Of a DNA stretch of 29,857 nt, positions 2,233 through 22,643 are shown piece after piece. Made by a program: the position numbers and the translations under genes. The DNA comes from a virus. Taxonomy: Duplodnaviria > Caudoviricetes. Numbering within the stretch: position 1 is the stretch's first letter; each line of letters opens with the position of its first letter. Below the pieces are notes generated by a model. The model saw only the letters and a program-made list of their open reading frames with translations. It ran no database searches and was not told the origin of the DNA. Location of the stretch: the IMG/VR virus record IMGVR_UViG_3300020432_000034, positions 1-29,857 of that record; one strand, 5' to 3'.

Positions 2233-2738
2233 CGAGTGTGACCGTAAGTCCTGATAGTACAGCTACTGTAGACAAAAGTAGGATATCCAAAACGGAAATC
2301 AAACTTGCCACAGTTAAGGAGATGTTGGCCGAGGCATCCATACTGTTTGACGAGCATTACGAAGAGATTGCTCGCAACAAACAAGTGATGAAGCTAAAGC
2401 CAGACGAAACGACGTACTACCGAATGGAGGACTCTAATCGTATATTCATCCTTTCAGCTAGGCAAGATGATAAGTTAATTGGTTATTCTGTTAATTTTGT
2501 CATTCATCATTTACATTATGCTGATTTAAAACTAGCCCAAAATGATTTGTTGTTTATCAGCAAGGAACACAGGGGTGGCAGAGTCGGTTTAAAGTTAATA
2601 AAGGAGACAGAAAAACACGCAACATCGCTCGGATGCAAACTTATGTTATGGCACGCCAAAGAAAGCACCACCTTGGCTCATATGCTACCGAGATTAAAAT
2701 ATGGTGTACAAGATATTATCTTTTCCAAGGAGCTATGA
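2229..2738 (+). CDS. GNAT-family N-acetyltransferase
   Basis: LIGYS strand, NDLLFISKEHRGGRVGLKLIKETEK (acetyl-CoA-binding motif A) and LPRLKY. ATGA coupling to the hydroxylase. Alternative start ATG at 2322. Confidence 0.8.
   Translation: MTSVTVSPDSTATVDKSRISKTEIKLATVKEMLAEASILFDEHYEEIARNKQVMKLKPDETTYYRMEDSNRIFILSARQDDKLIGYSVNFVIHHLHYADLKLAQNDLLFISKEHRGGRVGLKLIKETEKHATSLGCKLMLWHAKESTTLAHMLPRLKYGVQDIIFSKEL
2236..2269 (+). promoter_or_regulatory. Phage promoter motif copy 1 (GTGTGACCGTAA-N16-TACTGT)
   Basis: Exact 12-mer at 2236-2247 with a -10-like hexamer at 2264-2269; lies upstream of the portal block. Confidence 0.7.
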
Positions 2739-2739
2739 C

Positions 2740-3063
2740 ATGGCAGTTACGACAGCTATAGCAGCGGTTGCTAGTACTGGTTACCAAATTTACTCAGGAA
2801 TGCAACAGAAAAAGGCACAAAAAAAGCAATTAGCATTGCAACGAGAAGCTAATGAAGATGCTAGAAAACAAGCTAAAGCAGAAGCTGATCGTGCCGACAT
2901 AGAGTACAACAAAGCAAACAGGCAAACAGCAGATGTTAATGCTATTACTGACGAAAGTGTACTAGCAGGTAAGGGTGGTGCAGCAGGTACTATGCTTACT
3001 GGCAATATGGGCATAGATCCTAATCAATTAAACTTAGGCAAATCCACCTTATTAGGCGGTTAA
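2740..3063 (+). CDS. Small virion/assembly protein preceding portal (T7 gp7.3-like position)
   Basis: Start revised to ATG 2740 (AAGGAG at 2727-2732). Ala-rich N-terminus, coiled coil, C-terminal GTMLTG...STLLGG typical of pre-portal podovirus proteins. Confidence 0.65.
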   Translation: MAVTTAIAAVASTGYQIYSGMQQKKAQKKQLALQREANEDARKQAKAEADRADIEYNKANRQTADVNAITDESVLAGKGGAAGTMLTGNMGIDPNQLNLGKSTLLGG

Positions 3064-3066
3064 TCA

Positions 3067-4743
3067 ATGTACGAAACCAAGAGAAGTAAATTATTGACAA
3101 GGTGGGGTCACCTTCGATCTGAAAGGGCTACTTGGTGGTCACATTGGCAAGAAGTAACGACATATCTACTGCCAAGAAATGGACGTTATTTTGTACAAGA
3201 TAGAAACAAAGGGCATAGAAGACATAACTCGATATACGACAATACAGGAACAAGAGCGTTAAGAACATTAGGTGCAGGTATGATGGCCGGTGCAACATCC
3301 CCTGCAAGACCTTGGTTTAGATTAGGTACAGTTGATCCAGAACTAAATAAATATCCACCAGTAAAAATGTGGCTAAACGATGTCACAGAACGTATGCAAT
3401 TAGTGTTTACTAAATCAAATACATACAGAACATTACATGGTATATACGAAGAATTAGGAGCATTTGGAACGGCAGGGTCAATTATTTTACCTGACATGAA
3501 AAACGCAATACATCATTACCCGGTAACGTGTGGTGAATATGCAATTGCTACAGATTATCAGGGTAGAGTTAATACATTGTTTAGAGAATTTCAAAAAACG
3601 GTAGGAGAAACAGTAAGAGAGTTTGGATATAACAACTGTTCAACGTCCGTTAAAAACTTGCATGACAGAGGTTCATTGGATCAATGGATAACTATTATTC
3701 ATGCAATAGAACCAAGAGATGATAGAGAGCGTGATTACAGTAAAAAAGACAATATGAACATGGCATACAAATCTTGTTATTTTGAGCAAGGTGGTGAAGG
3801 CGATAAAGTACTAAGAGAAAGCGGATTTAGAGATTTTCCTGTAGTTGTACCAAGATGGGGTATATCTGGTGGCGATATTTATGGTAATTCACCGGGTATG
3901 GAAGCATTAGGTGACATAAAACAGCTACAACACGAGCAATTACGCAAGGCACAAGGCATTGATTACCAAACAAAGCCACCATTACAAGTACCTAGTTACC
4001 TTAAAAACCGTGATGTAGATAGTTTGCCGGGTGGCGTTACCTTTATTGATGGGCAACAAGGCAAGATTGAAACAGCATTTAACGTAAATTTAAACTTGCA
4101 ACACTTGTTAATGGACATACAAGACGTAAGGCAACGCATAAATGGTAGTTTTTATGCTGATTTGTTTCTTATGTTGGCAAATGCTACTGACACACGCATG
4201 ACAGCAACAGAGGTGGCAGAACGTCACGAAGAAAAATTGCTTATGTTAGGGCCTGTTTTAGAAAGATTACATAACGAATTACTAGATCCGTTAATAGATA
4301 TTACGTTCAGCAGAATGATAGAAGCAGATTTAGTGCCACCTGCACCAGAAGAATTGCAAGGTATGGAGTTAAATGTAGAGTTTGTATCTATGTTGGCACA
4401 AGCACAACGTGCTATTGGTACAAATAGTGTTGATAGATATACAAATACAATGGGTGCTATTGCACAAATGAAACCTGATGTACTTGATAAATTTGATTCT
4501 GATGCATGGGCAGATAGTTATGCTGATATGCTAGGCATTGATCCGGGATTAATAGTACCCGGACAAGTCGTAGCTAAGATACGACAGGAAAGAGCAGCAG
4601 CACAACAAGCAGCAGCACAGGCAGAACAACAACAACAAGCAGTAGAAAACATGGCAAAACTTGGTAAAGTAGACTCAGGTAATGCTATGGACATGATAAA
4701 CCAATTTAGTGGTTACAATTCACCATCACCATTGGAGGTATAA
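3067..4743 (+). CDS. Portal / head-to-tail connector (T7 gp8 / BPP-1 Bbp21-like)
   Basis: IYDNTGTRALRTLGAGMMAG, SPARPWFRL, YGNSPGMEALGD, MTATEVAERHEEKLLMLGPVLERL; 558 aa. Confidence 0.95.
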   Translation: MYETKRSKLLTRWGHLRSERATWWSHWQEVTTYLLPRNGRYFVQDRNKGHRRHNSIYDNTGTRALRTLGAGMMAGATSPARPWFRLGTVDPELNKYPPVKMWLNDVTERMQLVFTKSNTYRTLHGIYEELGAFGTAGSIILPDMKNAIHHYPVTCGEYAIATDYQGRVNTLFREFQKTVGETVREFGYNNCSTSVKNLHDRGSLDQWITIIHAIEPRDDRERDYSKKDNMNMAYKSCYFEQGGEGDKVLRESGFRDFPVVVPRWGISGGDIYGNSPGMEALGDIKQLQHEQLRKAQGIDYQTKPPLQVPSYLKNRDVDSLPGGVTFIDGQQGKIETAFNVNLNLQHLLMDIQDVRQRINGSFYADLFLMLANATDTRMTATEVAERHEEKLLMLGPVLERLHNELLDPLIDITFSRMIEADLVPPAPEELQGMELNVEFVSMLAQAQRAIGTNSVDRYTNTMGAIAQMKPDVLDKFDSDAWADSYADMLGIDPGLIVPGQVVAKIRQERAAAQQAAAQAEQQQQAVENMAKLGKVDSGNAMDMINQFSGYNSPSPLEV

Positions 4744-14639: not shown

Positions 14640-17600
14640 ATGACTAATATTTACGATCAATTTGCAGAAAACGAGAAAGAAGAAAAAGACATATTAGAAC
14701 TGGCTCCTAGTCAAAACATTGGTTCTAGTTACGCACCTAGTTACAACCCATATGATGAAATAACTAGACGAAGAGAACAAACTACAAACAATTTAGTAAA
14801 AGCTAATTTGCAAGCTGTAATGAAAAAAGACCCTGAGATGGTAGGAGAAGGATTAAGACTTGCAGAAGAAATAGGTCTAGATAAAAGTTTTGCTTTAGAT
14901 AGCGATGAAGCAATAAAATTAATGCGAGAAAAAAATAAAGCAGATCGTTTGCAAAGTTTAGAACTTGCAAAATATAGTCCTATATTACATAGAAAATTAA
15001 CTGACCCTACGTTTGCAGCTATTGCTTATGACAACATAAAAGATTTACAAGGGCTAGAAAAATTATTTGATGATTTTAAAAGTATTCCAGAAAATGTAGC
15101 CCAAGGTTGGGAAAAAGGAAGGTTAAATGTACGAAGAGGAAAAATAGGTACGATGAAATTATATGGCAATACAGATGAAAATTTAGATTTTGAATTAGCA
15201 GATATTAATAAAAGATTAGAAGAAATAGAAAAAGATGGTACTGGAATATTTGAAGAAGGATTTTCTATAATTGGACAATATTCAAAAACATTACCAGACG
15301 CATTAGAAATAGGTTTATACACAGGTGCTGCTAGTGGTGTGGCAGGTGCTGTTACAGGGCCGGGTTCTATATTCACAGCTAAAGGTGGTTTTATTGTTGG
15401 ATTTTTAGGATCAATGGCATTTGATAGTTATGCCATAGAAGGCGGTTCAATGTATCTTGATTTATTAGAAGAAGGCTTAGATAGTCAAACTTCTAAAAAT
15501 ATTGCTACAGGTGTTGGTTTAGTAAATGCAGGTTTTGAATTTGTAGGTTTGGGTGCAGTTACACAACCTATAAGAAAAGCATTAATTAAAGAAACAACGA
15601 AACAATTAACAAAAAAATTAGCAAAACCTACTGTTAAAACTACATTAACTAATTTTGCTAAAAATTATTTTTTAAATAATATGTTGGCAGAATCATTAAC
15701 TGAAGTAGCACAAGAAGGCACAAATATTTTAGGCCGTGATTTAGCAGTAGCATTAAGCGATACAGATTTAGAATTAAAAATTGCAACTGAAAGTGGTCGG
15801 GCAGAAATAGCAGATAGATTAACAACTACTTTTATAAGAAGTATGCAAGGTATGGCTTTAGTTGGTTTAGCAGGTAGTGGCCCTGTGTTTATTGGCGATA
15901 TACAAAAAGTACGAAAGGCAAAAGAAAATGAAGTATTTTTAAACGAATTATCAACTAATTCTTCAGCAAGTGTTTTAAAAAAAAGAAGTGCTACAGAATA
16001 TCAAAATTTAACACAAGAGTTAGGCAACGATAAAGGTAAGCCAAATGCTTATGTAGATGCACAAACTGTTGTTGAAGTAATGAAACAACAAGGTATTACT
16101 ATGCAAGACATAGAACAAGTGTCACCTAATATTGCAAATCAAATAAAAGAATTAAATAAATCAGGTGCATTAGTTGGACAAGATATTGTTATACCTACAG
16201 GTGAATACGCAGCAAAACTTGCAAATACAGAATTTGATGGATTTTTAAAACAACACATACGTTGGGATAAAGATGATTTTAGTAAAGCAGAAAGCACATA
16301 TTTTGAAGCTAATCGTCAAAAACTATACGAAGAAGCAAGACAAATAACAGAAAAACAAGAAAACAAAACTAATAAATTTACAGAAAGTGTTGGCAAAATA
16401 AAAACTAATTTTGAAAAAATGTTATTAGATACTGGTAAATTTAGAAATAAAGACGCAATTAACGCAGCCACTTTTTATCAAAGTTATGTAATAACACAAT
16501 CTAATAGGTTAGGAATAACACCTGATGAATTTGTACAAAAATATCCATATCAAGTAGTAGGGCCAGAACAAACACAAGTTCTTGCACAGCAAAATATAAA
16601 TGATGTAAATAAAGAAATAAATAATTTTAAACAACAATTAAAAAATTTAGGCACGCAACCACCATTGCCACCAGAAAATGCAAGGTTTGATGAGTCAGGT
16701 AATTCTACGGCTGCATATCAAAATTATTTAGATTGGGAAACAAAAAATAATGAACTTAATAATCAGATTGAAGATTTAGAAAATGAACGTGAAATATTTA
16801 CACAAAGAACAATACAAAGTAAAGGTAAACCAATACCTGTTGAAATATTAGAACTTGGCAAATTAGAAAATAGTTTTGAATTTGCAGGTAAAACTCAATA
16901 TGCAACTAATCGTGACTTTAAAATAGCTATACAAGAACGTATAAATAATGCTGCTAAACAAGCAAAAGTTAATTTATCTGATTTTTCTGTTGAGACAGAA
17001 AAACATCTTGTACAAAATTTACTTGCAGATGCAGAGTTTGCATTAAAAACTAATCCAAATGCAGTTGGTTGGTATAACGAAAAAGTAACAAAAGCATTAG
17101 CCGTATTGTCTCAAGTGCATCCAGAAATAGCTACAGATGCACAAGCAAGATTTGCTTTTATTTGGGCATTAGCTAATACATCTAATGGTTTAAAAGTAGA
17201 TAAAAATTTTGAATTAGCAGAACAAGCATATGCATATTACGCACAAAATAATGCAATGCCAGTTGATATAGGCATAGGTGATGCAAGTGCTGCAATTAAT
17301 AACAACATGAAATTGTTTAATAGATTAATGGAAGAAAAAGGGTTTGAAGAATTTGAACAATTTATGAAAACTATGCACACCGTAAAAGAGGTAGAAGCTT
17401 TTACTGGTAGTACTGTGTCAGGAGAAAACAAAACCGAAATGGTTTATGGTGCTGCGGTAATGGGGCCAAAAATTGGTAATGGATTTTTTGCTAATTTATA
17501 TGGTCAATTTGAACAATTAACTATGGATAGATGGTTAATGCGTACATGGGGTCGAATGACAGGCACATTAATAATTGACTATAAAAAACAAGCAAAGACA

Positions 17601-20600
17601 AAACGTGAACAATTAAAACAATTAATAAAAGGTTTAAGTTTAAAAGATAAAAAAGCTTTTGAAAAAATAATTGGTATAAAAATAAAACTTAGCAATTTAG
17701 ATGAAGTAGCTGTAGCAATACAAAAAGCAAGTATGAAACCTGCTAATAGAAAAGCAATGGCACAAATTGCAACTATTGAAAATACAGCTAACGCAGACCT
17801 TATAACATCTATTTTAGGTACACCTAAGAAAAACATAGAAAGAATAGGTATAGGAGATGAATTGCGTAAAGGCGGTAATGGTTTGGCTAAATTTATTGAC
17901 GGACAAAAAGAAGCACCTACTGGGCCAGTAGAAAGAAGACAAATTAGAAAAGTTTTTAATCAAGCGTTGAACCTATTGCAACAAAACAAAAAATCGCTTA
18001 CAATGGCAGATCTACAGGCGTTAGTTTGGTATCCAGAAAAACGTTTGTATGACACTGCTAAACTAAGTCAAGCAGAGCAAACTACAGGTTATCAAGATAA
18101 TGAAGCACCTGATTACGCCAATGCTGCTGTTAATTTGGCACAGCAACTTGGTGTGTCAGATGTTGACATCCAAACTACATTACAGGAGGTAGACCTTGAA
18201 CTCGAACGTCAGGCCACTATCGGCACAAGAGGAAGTGAATCTGGAGAAGGAACAGGAGGAGTTATACAACGAGATAATATTGAAACAGACGAAGCAACAG
18301 GACTCCCTCTCAACGAAGACGGAACAGTTACCGTCTACCACCACACCAACAAACAAGCAGCAGACAGCATCAGAAAGTCCGGTAAACTTAAAAGTTCTGG
18401 AGAACCTGATGTCTACGTTACCACCAGAAATGTCCCAGATACTGGCTATGGTGATACCTCAGTTGGACTCAGAGTCGACCCTACTAGACTTAGTCTCGAT
18501 GATGAATTCCCAAATGGACGAAGAGATTTCAGACTTTCAGTTGGAAAGCCTAGAGGATCTATTCAAGTAGATGTAATAGATCTTGCAGAACAAAGCAAAA
18601 TATTTTCTCAACAACAAGTACCTAGTGGTTTTGATGATGCAAGAGGTGGTTTTGACCCTAAAACATTAACTGCATTTTTAAATAAAGAAGCAGATATATC
18701 TACGTTTTTCCATGAGACAGCACATTTTATGTTAACTGTTATGGAAGATTTAGTGTTAACAGGGCAAGCAACACCAGACATACAAAATGATTTTAATGCG
18801 TTATTAGATTTCTGGGGTGTAGAAAATCTAGATGCATGGAGCAAATTGTCATTAAAAGAAAAAAGAAAATATCATGAAACATTTGCATATAATTACGAAA
18901 TTTATTTAACAGAAAAAAAAGCAGCACCTAGTGTTGGATTACAAGAAATATTTATTAAGTTTGGAGATTATGTACGCAAGGTTTATAGATTTATTGTTAG
19001 CGAATTAAATGAAACATATAAAAAAGAAAATGGTGTAGATTTGCCTGTTTTAACTGATGAAGTTAGGGCTGTAATGGATCGCATGATAGCTAGTGAGGAC
19101 GCAATACTGCAATCGCAACAAATATACGCAATGAAACCTATGTTTGAAACACAGGAACAAAGTGGTATGGATGATGCTACATGGAACGAATATACAAAAG
19201 CTATACAAGAAACACAGGATGCTGCTATAGATTCATTAACTAAAGCAAGTATGGGTCAACTTAAATGGCTTAGTAGAAAAGGTAAATTAATAGAAAGATT
19301 ACAAAACAGAGAAACAAGAGAAACTCGTAAAAGAGTTATGGCAGAAGAAACTGTTAAGGTAGAAAACGAACCATTGTATAAATTACAAAAGTTTTTAAAA
19401 ACTGGCGAATGGAATAATAAAAAAAATGACCAATTTAAAACAGCAGAAACTAGCAAAATAGATATTGATAGTTTAAAAAACCTTATGCCGTTTTATGACA
19501 TGGCATCAGAAATAAAAAAATTAGGTACAGGTAAAAACGGAATGGTTGGTAAGAACGGTATACCAGTACAAATGGTTGCAGAAATGTTTGGTTTTGATAC
19601 TGCAATAGATATGGTTAATGGTTTAGTAGATTTAGAACCAATTAAAACTGTCGTAACTGAACGTACAGAACAACGTATGTTAGACGAGTTTAGTAATTTA
19701 ACAGACCCAGAACAACGTGAATTACAAATACAAGAAGCATTACATAACGAAGCAAGGGCTAGATTTTTAGCTATTGAATTTAAATTTTTAACAAAGACTA
19801 TGCAACCAGTACGTTTTCAAGTAGCTGCTGCTAGACAAGTTGCAAAAGATATATTAGCTGACAAAAAAGTTGGTGACATTAGACCAACAGAATACGCTCG
19901 TGCAAGTAAAAGAGCAGTTAAAGATGCAGAAAAAGCTATGCGAGAAGGTGATAATTTAAAAGTTATACAAGCAAAAAAAGCAGAGTTATTGCATAACCAA
20001 CTTGCTCGTGAAGCTGCAATAATACAAAAACAATTTATAAAAGCAGAAAAAGATTTTAAAAAGTTTTTTGAAAAATCTGATAAAAAAATTGGCGAATTAA
20101 AAAATAGAAATATTGACTATATAAATGTTGGGCAAGAAATTTTATCTAGTTTTGGTATTGGTAAACCATTAGAACCGGGAGTAACGTATGTTGACAAATT
20201 AAAAGCATACAATGAAGATTTATTTAATCAATTAGATCCAATAATAACTGAACTTAAATTATTACCCGGTAGAGAAGTAAGTGATCTTACATTGCGTGAT
20301 TTTGATACTTTATATGAATCAATACAATCTTTGTGGTATCAATCAAGGCGTGATCAACAAATGAAAATTGGCAATCAATTAATAGAAAGACAAGCAATAG
20401 TTGACGAATTAGTTGGACGTTTAAGCAATATGACAAGTAGATCTTCAATTAATGTAGGTAAAACTAAAGAACCTAGTTTTTTTGAAAAACAAGTTTTAAA
20501 ATTAGAAGGTTTAAAATCAGCATTAAGACGAGTTGAACATTGGGCCGATGGTTTTGATGGAGATGCAGTAAATGCAAGAATAATAAGAGGTGGTGGTGTG

Positions 20601-22643
20601 TTAGGTGGCGGTGTGTTTACCACAAAAGACGGTGATGTAGCAGGGCCATTTACTCAATTTATATGGAGAACATTAAAAGATCCGTTAGTGCAATGGAGAT
20701 CTGAAAGACCAAAATATGTAGGTCGTTATTTGGAAATGTTAAAACAATTAGATTTTGGTAACGACAAAATTAATGCTTACGAATTTGATGACCCTTATAT
20801 ATTTGGTGATAGAAGAGGTAAAGGTAAAGTTGAATTACTTGGAGCTATGCTGCACACAGGTAATAAAAGTAATTTAACTAAATTATTAGTTGGCAGAGGT
20901 TGGGGTAATTTAAAAGAAGACGGTACGTTAGACACAACTAAATGGGATGCTTTTGTTAATCGCATGATTGATGAAGGTTATCTTACTAAAAAAGATTTTG
21001 ATTTTTTACAAGATGTTTGGGATTTAAACGAAGAGTTGTTACCACTTACTCAACAAGCACATAGGGATGTATTTGGATATTATTTTAAAGAAATAGGTGC
21101 AACTCCTACTATTAATAAGTTTGGTACATATAGAGGTGGATATGTACCTGCTAAACCAGATGCGATTTTAAATAAAGATTTAAATTTAAAACAAACATTA
21201 GATGGTGTATTAGAAGAAATGAGATACTCTGTACCTGCTGTGCCTAGAGGTTTTACTAAGGCAAGAACAGAAGTAAATAGAGCGTTATCTATTAGTTTAT
21301 TTGATAATGCAAAACATTTAGATGATGCATTACGTTTTGCATATGTACAACCTGCCGTAACTGATTTATTTAAATTATTTAAAAATAAAGAATTTGCTAG
21401 TGAAATGAATCGTGTTGATGCTAATGCTATTAATGATATGCTTATGCCTTGGTTAGAAAACGCTGCAACACAACGTACAGCTATAAGAACTGGTTCATTT
21501 TTAGATAATTTTTTTACTGCAATTACAAGAAGCACAGGTTTAAATTATATGTTTTTAAGTTTAAAAAACGCAGCACAACAACTTACAGGTGTTTTACCTG
21601 CACGATTAAAAGTAGAACATAAATACATGAGAGATGCATTTAAAAGATACACAAGAGAACCGCAAAAAGTTATTGAAGAAATATCAGCTATGTCAGCTTT
21701 TATGAAAGATCGCCAAACAAACCAGATGTTTGACATACAAGATACTATGAACCAATTAATTTTAGATCCTAATAAATATGAAAAAATACAAAACTGGTCA
21801 GCTAAACACGGATATTTTTTACAACAAGCATTTCAAAATTATGTTGATAGTTTAGTTTGGATTGCTACATATAATCAAACTTCTGCAAACGCTCCAATAA
21901 ATATGTCAGAAGCACAAGTGCAACAAGAAGCAATACAGCAAGCAGATGCCAATGTACGTTTAACACAAGATAGTTTATTACCAGAAGACGTAGCTGCATA
22001 TCAAATAAATCAACCTTTTGTAAAAATGATTATGCAATTTACTAGTTATTTCAATACACAAGCAAACTTAAACGCTACACAATACAAAAAAATAGTTAAG
22101 GAATTAGGATTTAATTCTAAACAATTTAGTGGTCAAATATTTTTTGCAACTATGTTTGGTACGTTTTTACCTGCAATAGTTTCAGAAGGCATACAAGAAA
22201 TGGCAGCAGGTGGTTTAGTAGATGAAGATGAAGATGGTTATTTAGATGAAATTTTTGATTTTATTTTCTTTTCTACTGGTCGATATGGAAGTGCATATAT
22301 ACCTTTAGGCAGTACAGTTTTAATGATGCCATTTAATTTATTTGATGACAAGCCATACAATGATCGTATTACATTAAGTCCATCAATATCATTAATAAAT
22401 TCTACTTTGCAAGGTACAAGCAGATTTATTGTTAATGTTATAGATCCTGATAAAGATGTAAAAGGAAATGATGTAAGAAGTGTTTTAACATTAATGTCGT
22501 TATTTACTAAAATTCCTACATATTTTGCAGCTAAACCTATTGGTAATTTAGTCGACCTTAAAGACGGCAGATGGGTTCCTAGAGGGCCAATTGATTTAAT
22601 AAGAGGTTTAGTAACTGGCCAAAAAGGCCAAGGCAGAAATTAA
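14640..22643 (+). CDS. Large polyvalent internal virion/ejection protein (2667 aa) with HhH-glycosylase-like, ADP-ribosyltransferase-like and zincin metallopeptidase domains
   Basis: Hydrophobic Gly-rich segments in the N-terminal part; GPKIG...TMDRWLMR (about aa 942-968); VYHHT...VYVTT (from aa 1232); FFHETAH (H at aa 1358) with downstream HETFA; last gene before the tail fibre. Confidence 0.85.
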   Translation: MTNIYDQFAENEKEEKDILELAPSQNIGSSYAPSYNPYDEITRRREQTTNNLVKANLQAVMKKDPEMVGEGLRLAEEIGLDKSFALDSDEAIKLMREKNKADRLQSLELAKYSPILHRKLTDPTFAAIAYDNIKDLQGLEKLFDDFKSIPENVAQGWEKGRLNVRRGKIGTMKLYGNTDENLDFELADINKRLEEIEKDGTGIFEEGFSIIGQYSKTLPDALEIGLYTGAASGVAGAVTGPGSIFTAKGGFIVGFLGSMAFDSYAIEGGSMYLDLLEEGLDSQTSKNIATGVGLVNAGFEFVGLGAVTQPIRKALIKETTKQLTKKLAKPTVKTTLTNFAKNYFLNNMLAESLTEVAQEGTNILGRDLAVALSDTDLELKIATESGRAEIADRLTTTFIRSMQGMALVGLAGSGPVFIGDIQKVRKAKENEVFLNELSTNSSASVLKKRSATEYQNLTQELGNDKGKPNAYVDAQTVVEVMKQQGITMQDIEQVSPNIANQIKELNKSGALVGQDIVIPTGEYAAKLANTEFDGFLKQHIRWDKDDFSKAESTYFEANRQKLYEEARQITEKQENKTNKFTESVGKIKTNFEKMLLDTGKFRNKDAINAATFYQSYVITQSNRLGITPDEFVQKYPYQVVGPEQTQVLAQQNINDVNKEINNFKQQLKNLGTQPPLPPENARFDESGNSTAAYQNYLDWETKNNELNNQIEDLENEREIFTQRTIQSKGKPIPVEILELGKLENSFEFAGKTQYATNRDFKIAIQERINNAAKQAKVNLSDFSVETEKHLVQNLLADAEFALKTNPNAVGWYNEKVTKALAVLSQVHPEIATDAQARFAFIWALANTSNGLKVDKNFELAEQAYAYYAQNNAMPVDIGIGDASAAINNNMKLFNRLMEEKGFEEFEQFMKTMHTVKEVEAFTGSTVSGENKTEMVYGAAVMGPKIGNGFFANLYGQFEQLTMDRWLMRTWGRMTGTLIIDYKKQAKTKREQLKQLIKGLSLKDKKAFEKIIGIKIKLSNLDEVAVAIQKASMKPANRKAMAQIATIENTANADLITSILGTPKKNIERIGIGDELRKGGNGLAKFIDGQKEAPTGPVERRQIRKVFNQALNLLQQNKKSLTMADLQALVWYPEKRLYDTAKLSQAEQTTGYQDNEAPDYANAAVNLAQQLGVSDVDIQTTLQEVDLELERQATIGTRGSESGEGTGGVIQRDNIETDEATGLPLNEDGTVTVYHHTNKQAADSIRKSGKLKSSGEPDVYVTTRNVPDTGYGDTSVGLRVDPTRLSLDDEFPNGRRDFRLSVGKPRGSIQVDVIDLAEQSKIFSQQQVPSGFDDARGGFDPKTLTAFLNKEADISTFFHETAHFMLTVMEDLVLTGQATPDIQNDFNALLDFWGVENLDAWSKLSLKEKRKYHETFAYNYEIYLTEKKAAPSVGLQEIFIKFGDYVRKVYRFIVSELNETYKKENGVDLPVLTDEVRAVMDRMIASEDAILQSQQIYAMKPMFETQEQSGMDDATWNEYTKAIQETQDAAIDSLTKASMGQLKWLSRKGKLIERLQNRETRETRKRVMAEETVKVENEPLYKLQKFLKTGEWNNKKNDQFKTAETSKIDIDSLKNLMPFYDMASEIKKLGTGKNGMVGKNGIPVQMVAEMFGFDTAIDMVNGLVDLEPIKTVVTERTEQRMLDEFSNLTDPEQRELQIQEALHNEARARFLAIEFKFLTKTMQPVRFQVAAARQVAKDILADKKVGDIRPTEYARASKRAVKDAEKAMREGDNLKVIQAKKAELLHNQLAREAAIIQKQFIKAEKDFKKFFEKSDKKIGELKNRNIDYINVGQEILSSFGIGKPLEPGVTYVDKLKAYNEDLFNQLDPIITELKLLPGREVSDLTLRDFDTLYESIQSLWYQSRRDQQMKIGNQLIERQAIVDELVGRLSNMTSRSSINVGKTKEPSFFEKQVLKLEGLKSALRRVEHWADGFDGDAVNARIIRGGGVLGGGVFTTKDGDVAGPFTQFIWRTLKDPLVQWRSERPKYVGRYLEMLKQLDFGNDKINAYEFDDPYIFGDRRGKGKVELLGAMLHTGNKSNLTKLLVGRGWGNLKEDGTLDTTKWDAFVNRMIDEGYLTKKDFDFLQDVWDLNEELLPLTQQAHRDVFGYYFKEIGATPTINKFGTYRGGYVPAKPDAILNKDLNLKQTLDGVLEEMRYSVPAVPRGFTKARTEVNRALSISLFDNAKHLDDALRFAYVQPAVTDLFKLFKNKEFASEMNRVDANAINDMLMPWLENAATQRTAIRTGSFLDNFFTAITRSTGLNYMFLSLKNAAQQLTGVLPARLKVEHKYMRDAFKRYTREPQKVIEEISAMSAFMKDRQTNQMFDIQDTMNQLILDPNKYEKIQNWSAKHGYFLQQAFQNYVDSLVWIATYNQTSANAPINMSEAQVQQEAIQQADANVRLTQDSLLPEDVAAYQINQPFVKMIMQFTSYFNTQANLNATQYKKIVKELGFNSKQFSGQIFFATMFGTFLPAIVSEGIQEMAAGGLVDEDEDGYLDEIFDFIFFSTGRYGSAYIPLGSTVLMMPFNLFDDKPYNDRITLSPSISLINSTLQGTSRFIVNVIDPDKDVKGNDVRSVLTLMSLFTKIPTYFAAKPIGNLVDLKDGRWVPRGPIDLIRGLVTGQKGQGRN
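18196..18570 (+). CDS. Putative overprinted acidic protein (124 aa) in the +1 frame of the giant gene
   Basis: TTG start preceded by AGGAGGT (18184-18190, 5-nt spacer); host-frame Leu/Val/Ile codons switch to NTC/NTT over exactly this interval. Confidence 0.65.
   Translation: MNSNVRPLSAQEEVNLEKEQEELYNEIILKQTKQQDSLSTKTEQLPSTTTPTNKQQTASESPVNLKVLENLMSTLPPEMSQILAMVIPQLDSESTLLDLVSMMNSQMDEEISDFQLESLEDLFK

Follow-up and report, generated by a model that had tools for sequence, protein, structure and literature searches.

What keeps a reading frame of 124 codons open, one frame out of register, in the middle of a giant phage gene, and which part of that gene does it serve? The locus that raises this question lies in the IMG/VR virus record IMGVR_UViG_3300020432_000034 (Duplodnaviria; Caudoviricetes), whose 29,857 nucleotides constitute the window analysed here. 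On its plus strand, a gene at 14640..22643 encodes a 2667-aa polyvalent protein of the virion/ejection module, similar to Bbp10 of phage BPP-1, and frame +1 of this gene contains an open reading frame (ORF) for 124 amino acids (18196..18570, plus strand) that runs from a TTG start (ATG in most relatives) to a TAG stop. The first-pass annotation read this nested ORF as an immunity protein for the ADP-ribosyltransferase (ART)-like domain whose codons it overlaps, the two moving together as one cassette. We show here that the ORF is a real overlapping gene, kept by selection across many phages. The ART domain is probably the wrong target: the gene appears to follow the neighbouring upstream domain, which has a predicted helix-hairpin-helix (HhH) DNA-glycosylase fold, and the chances are about even that its acidic N-terminal segment binds and inhibits that domain.

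The ORF matches its earlier description in every sequence detail. It starts at TTG 18196, 5 nt behind a Shine-Dalgarno (SD) sequence, AGGAGGT (18184..18190, plus strand), which is made of the rare main-frame codons CAG GAG and occurs just twice in the window, this copy included. A recount also agrees with the reported acidic product (22 D/E against 8 K/R) and with the avoidance of TTA, GTA and ATA. Within the ORF span the main frame uses no TTA, CTA, TTG, CTG or GTG codon, a single ATA (the next base is C) and a single GTA, the one that makes the nested ORF's own stop; outside the span the giant gene uses TTA 175, GTA 62 and ATA 95 times, and its longest other +1 stop-free run is 41 codons. 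Given the main protein, the probability of an open +1 frame over 124 codons is 2.2e-8 with the codon use of the rest of the gene, 3e-8 to 6e-5 with that of seven other window genes and 3e-4 under uniform synonymous codon use, and 0 of 3000 whole-gene resamples reached 125 codons (maximum 89). The codon shuffle suggested in the first-pass annotation thus places the open frame far beyond chance. When just the region's own codons were shuffled, the frame stayed open in 18% of cases, and the signal is therefore codon choice itself. No strong RNA structure spans the SD and start of the nested gene (z 1.15), and its stop coincides with the last predicted strand of the ART-fold domain. Family searches with the nested protein and seven related +1 peptides returned no significant match; 62 database homologues are unnamed gene calls in the same frame. 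One metatranscriptome (word share 0.05) held no contig over the nested ORF and was uninformative. We consider it highly probable that the nested gene is translated from its SD.

The SD, start and stop recur in relatives, as had been anticipated. The viral-contig scan with the overlapped domain covered the best 80 of 130 relatives (68-100% identity, one being the window's own sequence). Across the ART domain the +1 frame is stop-free in 75 of these 80 loci, the exceptions being one that stops ten codons early (L046) and four with 2-4 stops. An SD with a start codon was likewise found in 75 of the 80 (ATG 57, TTG 11, GTG 7), and the first +1 stop falls at the end of the ART domain in 75 of 77 marine-clade stretches. 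Among the 75 loci with sufficient flank, Leu/Val/Ile codons followed by a purine, which are at risk of making a +1 stop, do so at 1588/2366 sites upstream and 639/886 downstream, against 0/227 in the linker and 1/896 in the ART domain; parsimony steps per third-position column drop from 7.97 to 3.67 in the same loci. Because locus counts share ancestry, changes were also counted on the tree: among 47 synonymous changes that at-risk codons underwent within the ART domain, a single one created a stop, compared with 21 of 22 changes from a non-stop state in an 88-codon control. Furthermore, the 76 marine giant ORFs contain 77 other stop-free runs of at least 55 codons, and just one of these has a strong SD and start. 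As a separate observation, eight loci (L012, L066, L067, L069 and L071-L074) carry ~110-510 aa of extra cargo directly after the ART domain, with the +1 stop unmoved.

The proposal that dual coding is under selection is borne out by ratios of nonsynonymous to synonymous change (pN/pS), computed on non-overlapping pairs. The conserved acidic N-terminal motif of the nested protein (residues ~4-30, 18205..18285, plus strand; consensus PxSAQQExNE; mean net charge -3.8) lies beneath a main-frame linker, and its A5 and Q11 are invariant in 37 aligned sequences. At 18 motif codons, pN/pS is 0.25 in +1 and 1.3 in the main frame for 17 pairs of relatives that lack the ART domain, and 0.17 and 2.3 for 23 pairs that have it; these codons were anchored by means of the +1 motif, and the +1 value may be a little too low for that reason; the test also omits 30 of 126 stretches missed by the motif regular expression, all of the ART clade and with visible motif variants. 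Inside the upstream domain the pattern is inverted (main frame 0.07 and 0.14; +1 1.6 and 0.9). An S/T/Q-rich spacer follows (residues 31-62, 18286..18381, plus strand), stop-free and about neutral in its amino acids: over ART codons 1-30 (nested residues 36-65), +1 pN/pS is 1.08 (confidence interval (CI) 0.69-1.98, 37 pairs). Over the ART core lies an acidic, Leu/Met-rich C-terminal part (residues 63-124, 18382..18567, plus strand; net charge -10), in which nested residues 66-123 give 0.57 (CI 0.36-0.91) in +1 and 0.43 in the main frame (37 pairs), and the +1 shadow of eight more divergent, non-overprinted ART pairs gives 1.68 (1.31-2.31). In the marine clade the C-terminal half is thus under +1 amino-acid selection, and both frames code there. 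From this profile, the nested protein consists of a conserved N-terminal motif, a merely open spacer and a C-terminal half under constraint.

The overlapped domain (aa 1216-1312 of the giant protein, 18285..18575, plus strand) carries the motifs YHHT, DVYVTT and DDEFP, and its earlier designation as ART-like is supported by structure prediction. An AlphaFold2 model reached a predicted local distance difference test score (pLDDT) of 93.5, and VIA-align placed it closest to TreTu (Z 7.0, root mean square deviation (rmsd) 2.6, 79 residues aligned) and KptA (6.4); nearly all of the 50 matches listed have the ART fold, at modest Z values. At the candidate catalytic positions, H19, H20 and D73 are invariant and Y44 and E74 nearly so in a set of 30 sequences. 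The domain has 482 relatives at E<=1e-3. Pfam gave weak HYD1/Tpt1 matches and no ART-PolyVal match, the best being Tox-ART-HYD1 (E 0.013, in 9/30, below cut-off); a Foldseek search of the model against the PDB found no match at E<=0.001, and tblastn of the region against cultured phages found none. We regard this domain as a predicted minimal ART fold and a putative ADP-ribosyltransferase.

The domain upstream of it (aa ~785-1190, 16992..18209, plus strand) was modelled with a pLDDT of 87. VIA-align matched it best to the 8-oxoguanine glycosylase (OGG) Tm1821 (Z 10.6, rmsd 4.7, 202 residues aligned), followed by the queuine salvage enzyme QNG1 (8.9), NTHL1 (8.8), AGOG (8.2) and the PaMx11 gp46 transferase (7.5), with MagIII and EndoIII also present. 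For a helical protein such Z values are modest, and the weight comes from the uniformity of the list, whose top 20 rows are all HhH-GPD glycosylases or their kin. A putative catalytic pair, Lys944 in a GPK motif (17469) and Asp963 in a TMD motif (17526), was assigned by motif analogy; the two residues, 19 apart, a spacing that we take to resemble that of Ogg2/AGOG-type enzymes, are invariant in one alignment (K160 and D179) and found in 121 of 126 stretches, the other five not being parsed. Foldseek against the PDB returned no match at E<=0.001, and PDB sequence searches with this and the ART domain gave no real match. By profile the domain resembles DUF7178 (PF23802): the window scores 14.2 bits, below the curated cut-off of 27, the best E is 1.2e-4, weak matches occur in 15/32 sequences, and the Atlas neighbour cluster is 33% DUF7178. 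Its predicted viral relatives are polyvalent proteins. It thus has a predicted HhH-GPD DNA-glycosylase fold and may be a base-excising enzyme.

Which of the two domains does the nested gene accompany? The four loci with a broken +1 frame proved to hold the ART domain in another context, and a widened set contained 18 distinct ART domains that lack the upstream domain seen in the window. In 17 of 17 ART domains with no HhH-like neighbour, at GC content of third codon positions (GC3) from 0.28 to 0.92, the +1 frame meets a stop by codon 40; L032, truncated inside the HhH domain, was left out of this count, and the truncated L417 and L419 were also set aside. The eighteenth, L315, was counted separately: it has a different HhH-like domain upstream, and its +1 frame is open for 78 codons. 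Of 99 ART-bearing representatives of 50% clusters whose upstream sequence is long, just 5 have the window's upstream (family-1 HhH) domain. Scanning with this domain yielded 126 distinct stretches, 78 with the ART domain and 48 without it. Directly behind this domain the +1 frame is open over 19 codons in all 126, compared with 36/386 (ART clade) and 106/236 (others) control windows inside the domain; the +2 frame is open in 9/78 ART and 23/48 non-ART stretches. All 48 non-ART stretches contain a variant of the PxSAQQExNE motif, whichever domain comes next, at GC 0.41-0.69, and with the ART stretches the tie between motif and domain holds across changing downstream domains from GC 0.31 to 0.69. 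An SD and start occupy the expected +1 place in 20/20 ART and 24/43 non-ART loci, against 0/63 in +2 and 14/306 inside the upstream domain. Among genome-contig loci, the ORF stands directly behind the HhH-like domain in 15 of 16. The motif gene is unannotated in Limnohabitans phage DC33 (PQ492659) and in MW202722, and the motif is also present in the genome of a Polynucleobacter isolate. In cassettes located within a polyprotein, the selection pattern shows that the partner gene serves the main frame as a G/R/S/D-rich linker. We consider a functional partnership between the nested protein and the HhH domain to be likely.

Some loci deserve mention in their own right. L052 (1705-2620), which is AT-rich, encodes a stand-alone protein of ~305 aa with the ART domain at its end (73% identity), and has just two +1 stops at ten at-risk codons; it may descend from a dual-coded lineage. 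Towards their C-termini the +1 proteins differ freely according to which domain lies downstream. In L160 (2804-3016), which is phage DC33, the +1 protein ends in a different conserved module, DP...NPGLT..A.EMA..FGF, shared with L139, L146, L158, L379, L388, L405, L406 and L409. This module directly precedes a main-frame domain that, judged by eye, looks GNAT-like, and it is possibly a second partner module, serving that domain.

A small +1 gene also stands behind other HhH-like domains. The second group, of the L315 type, comprises 58 distinct stretches, of which 52 could be anchored and six were left out. All 52 have a stop-free +1 frame across 28 linker codons (stops at 0/1456 linker codons versus 137/4680 upstream), an SD and start occur in 34/52, and pN/pS is 0.25 in +1 versus 1.36 in the main frame (19 pairs). 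The domain has weak matches to Ogg-HhH and MjOgg. In 10 of the 52 the host ORF ends within 80 codons, and in L441 it ends right behind the domain, with the small ORF overlapping its end and filling the gap to the next gene, a layout as would be expected for an ordinary downstream partner gene. In L315 itself (2700-3290) the second-group domain is followed by the same ART domain as in the window, the sole ART among loci L421-L519. A third group, ~30% identical to the first, has an acidic +1 ORF of ~50 aa with SD and ATG at codon 46-50 in 18/20 loci, judged by eye. The peptides of the three groups share no clear common motif.

It is possible to propose a mechanism from these observations. The giant protein would be made late, packaged and ejected with the DNA, as its position and homology suggest. 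Its glycosylase-like domain, with Lys and Asp retained, may then excise bases from the DNA of the new host, as its fold predicts. A base-excising enzyme present in bulk during assembly would endanger the phage's own DNA, and this danger would be averted by a free inhibitor that is not ejected: the separately initiated small protein may keep the enzyme away from the phage's DNA in the lysogen or the cell that makes the virions, and then stay behind. The inhibitor logic of the first-pass annotation would thereby be transferred from the ART domain to its neighbour, with the enzyme and its downstream partner gene forming one cassette. Toxin and immunity genes usually come in this order, the enzyme first and its small partner gene next. 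In the marine clade the partner gene continues across an inserted ART-fold domain, where both frames are constrained. As the kind of partnership involved, inhibition is in our judgement an even call.

Several observations weigh against this proposal. Firstly, L407 lacks a +1 ORF behind a domain that retains both Lys and Asp; a partner gene is therefore not obligatory; as an aside, the main frame of L407 (2501-3910) carries a short LSAEE-type helix start at the ORF's usual spot, possibly by chance. A proximal SD is missing in 19/43 non-ART loci, 13 of these 19 being open to an upstream start versus 6/24 of the others (p 0.006, confounded by GC). HHalign found no significant match between the first and second domain groups (probability 0.6%), and their grouping therefore rests on the weak Ogg-HhH matches. 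The second-group peptides lack acidity and have no clear motif in common with those of the first group; DNA mimicry is therefore not general. Glycosylase activity and toxicity are predictions, and among proteins of this fold are also a queuine salvage enzyme and a base-modifying transferase. Finally, linkage by itself fits an inhibitor, an activator or a chaperone alike and cannot tell between them.

The last point leads to the rival that survives best, in which the nested protein assists the glycosylase-like domain, or the giant protein as a whole, without inhibiting it, as an activator, a folding or packaging chaperone or an accessory subunit. The strict linkage and the selection data fit it equally, and the second-group peptides resemble neutral amphipathic helices more than DNA mimics. 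However, the first- and third-group peptides are acidic, and unrelated peptides behind three groups of the same fold are what the fast turnover of cognate inhibitors, as generally known, would produce. We regard this alternative as unlikely. Similarly unlikely in our estimate is an extension of the inhibitor reading to a two-module antidote, in which the N-terminal helix would block the glycosylase, the C-terminal half, arisen de novo over the ART codons, could act as a second module blocking the ADP-ribosyltransferase, and each glycosylase cargo domain would bring its inhibitor gene along as a 'linker', so that frame +1 of phage polyvalent virion proteins would conceal a further layer of antidotes.

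The first-pass proposal of an immunity protein travelling with the ART domain has real attractions. In marine-clade loci the frame stays free of stops over the entire domain and nearly always ends with it, at-risk codons on the tree almost never turned into stops, the nested C-terminal half is under +1 amino-acid selection, L315 is open over its ART domain behind a second-group HhH, and the database protein P0212 looks like a further case. The proposal fails on co-occurrence: where the HhH-like neighbour is missing, the ORF is retained over 0 of 17 ART domains, ART-bearing representatives seldom have the family-1 domain, and the ORF's conserved core, its N-terminal ~25 residues, lies before the ART domain and persists in 48 stretches without one. 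We judge it quite improbable.

A real but functionally independent small gene, using an unconstrained linker as free coding space, is more doubtful still. Low-constraint linkers can host out-of-frame genes, as with the ShiLan HNH gene (PMC11855218), and the variable C-terminal parts would suit such a gene. The motif nevertheless stays tied to the HhH domain across changing downstream domains and a wide GC range, and among the other long stop-free runs of the marine giant ORFs a strong SD and start is found just once.

There is very little probability that the +1 segment is reached by an SD-stimulated ribosomal +1 frameshift, giving a shorter isoform of glycosylase domain plus acidic tail. In its favour, some loci lack a proximal SD and start, and the database protein P0162 joins the last main-frame residues of the HhH domain directly to the nested motif, by an assembly indel or a natural fusion. 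Against it, start codons are kept at SD distance among the best 80 of 130 relatives, no common slippery sequence was found, and an in-frame fusion of main frame and motif occurs in 0 of 126 stretches. Lastly, that there is no gene at all and the open frame simply came along with an ART segment acquired from a donor of different, GC-rich codon use can be ruled out for practical purposes: the region's raised GC3 (0.26-0.34 versus ~0.12 elsewhere) would suit it, but GC-richer ART relatives all have +1 stops, at-risk codons avoid stops in the ART domain and linker and not in the flanks, and +1 pN/pS is well below 1.

Turning to the setting of the cassette, the record encodes terminase, portal, a GP7-type capsid, Bbp16 and tail genes by profile search, and the window is, judging from this gene set, a BPP-1-like podovirus; its capsid is 83-85% identical to those of freshwater phages including DC33. 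The giant gene follows the portal, GP7 capsid, Bbp16 and a weakly T7 gp14-like gene. Its product matches LPD22 (E 4e-11) and phrog_9880 (E 1e-274), and by tblastn Bbp10 of BPP-1 (E 1e-77) and DC33; this position and homology suggest packaging and ejection. A tentative internal sigma70-type promoter, TTGCAA-17-TACAAT (17976..18004, plus strand), lies ~180 nt before the SD. It is the sole site in 17500-18800, where the shuffle mean is higher (3.4), and thus at chance level as a motif count; its codons are overrepresented in non-ART loci (TTG 11/13 versus 1.5 expected, CTT 10/15 versus 2.2, ACA 17/28 versus 4.7, uncorrected for relatedness). A second cluster of atypical synonymous codons in relatives, at 17460-17580 of the window (-185 to -147 from QALVW), surrounds GPKIGNG and TMDRW and may mark another nucleotide-level element. 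Additionally, genes for an Asp/Asn beta-hydroxylase-like protein and a GNAT acetyltransferase lie between terminase and portal (1672-2738), and DC33 (PQ492659.1) is filed under Inoviridae despite a 39-kb genome, a BPP-1-like capsid and a giant virion protein.

Embedded genes and enzyme-partner cassettes are known kinds, and the nested gene is a variant of them whose partner is probably the upstream glycosylase-like domain and not the ART domain. In polymorphic toxin-immunity pairs such as TreTu/TriTu and RhsP2/RhsI2, an enzyme domain, like ours a minimal ART fold, is followed by a small, fast-evolving partner gene; here, in contrast, the enzyme lies mid-polyprotein, the partner is out of frame within the same gene, and inhibition is a proposal. 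Ugi and p56 are small acidic phage DNA mimics that inhibit host enzymes of the uracil-DNA glycosylase family. They resemble the nested protein as small acidic phage proteins paired with a glycosylase, but are ordinary genes, and no sequence or family match was found for the nested protein. The upstream domain shares its predicted fold with Ogg2/AGOG-type HhH-GPD glycosylases (Tm1821, 3n0u; MjOgg, 3fhf) and DUF7178, and differs from the former in its 8% identity, its ~110-residue helical insertion and its place in a virion polyprotein. Lambda Rz/Rz1 is a familiar embedded out-of-frame phage gene. The ShiLan HNH gene lies out of frame in a methylase gene, which reads it as a loop (PMC11855218). 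In both, as here, a complete gene occupies another frame of a host gene that reads loop or linker, and annotation missed the nested gene; the present gene is neither homing nuclease nor spanin. It goes with the enzyme domain next to it, and its marine-clade version lies over a domain predicted to be globular, where selection acts on both frames. Large polyvalent phage proteins with ART-type domains, predicted to be injected with the DNA, were described by Iyer et al. 2017 (PMC5512222). Like them, the giant protein belongs to the virion module and combines several domains, among them LPD22 and one of ART type, with a cargo region that is interchangeable; the main text of that paper mentions no glycosylase, overlapping gene or nested partner gene, and its ART family is H-Y-D/Tox-ART-HYD2, whereas the window's domain has no ART-PolyVal match and weak HYD1/Tpt1 matches. 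A literature search covering few subscription journals found no nested inhibitor of a phage glycosylase domain and no paper on DUF7178.

Overall, our analysis suggests that some seemingly floppy linkers in the giant virion proteins of phages are what the main frame makes of an unannotated partner gene, and such partners have therefore been missed by annotation, even in a cultured phage such as DC33. The marine clade, with 77 stretches, is a well-sampled case of dual amino-acid selection across a predicted globular enzyme domain; it keeps 89 further codons open, half of them conserved, and could serve as a model for how overprinted genes extend. A further suggestion from the pairing is that the HhH/DUF7178-like domain, widespread as cargo, is delivered with the genome as an active DNA enzyme that can harm its own producer; the nested protein, as its candidate inhibitor, would permit the HhH domain to be cloned and assayed.

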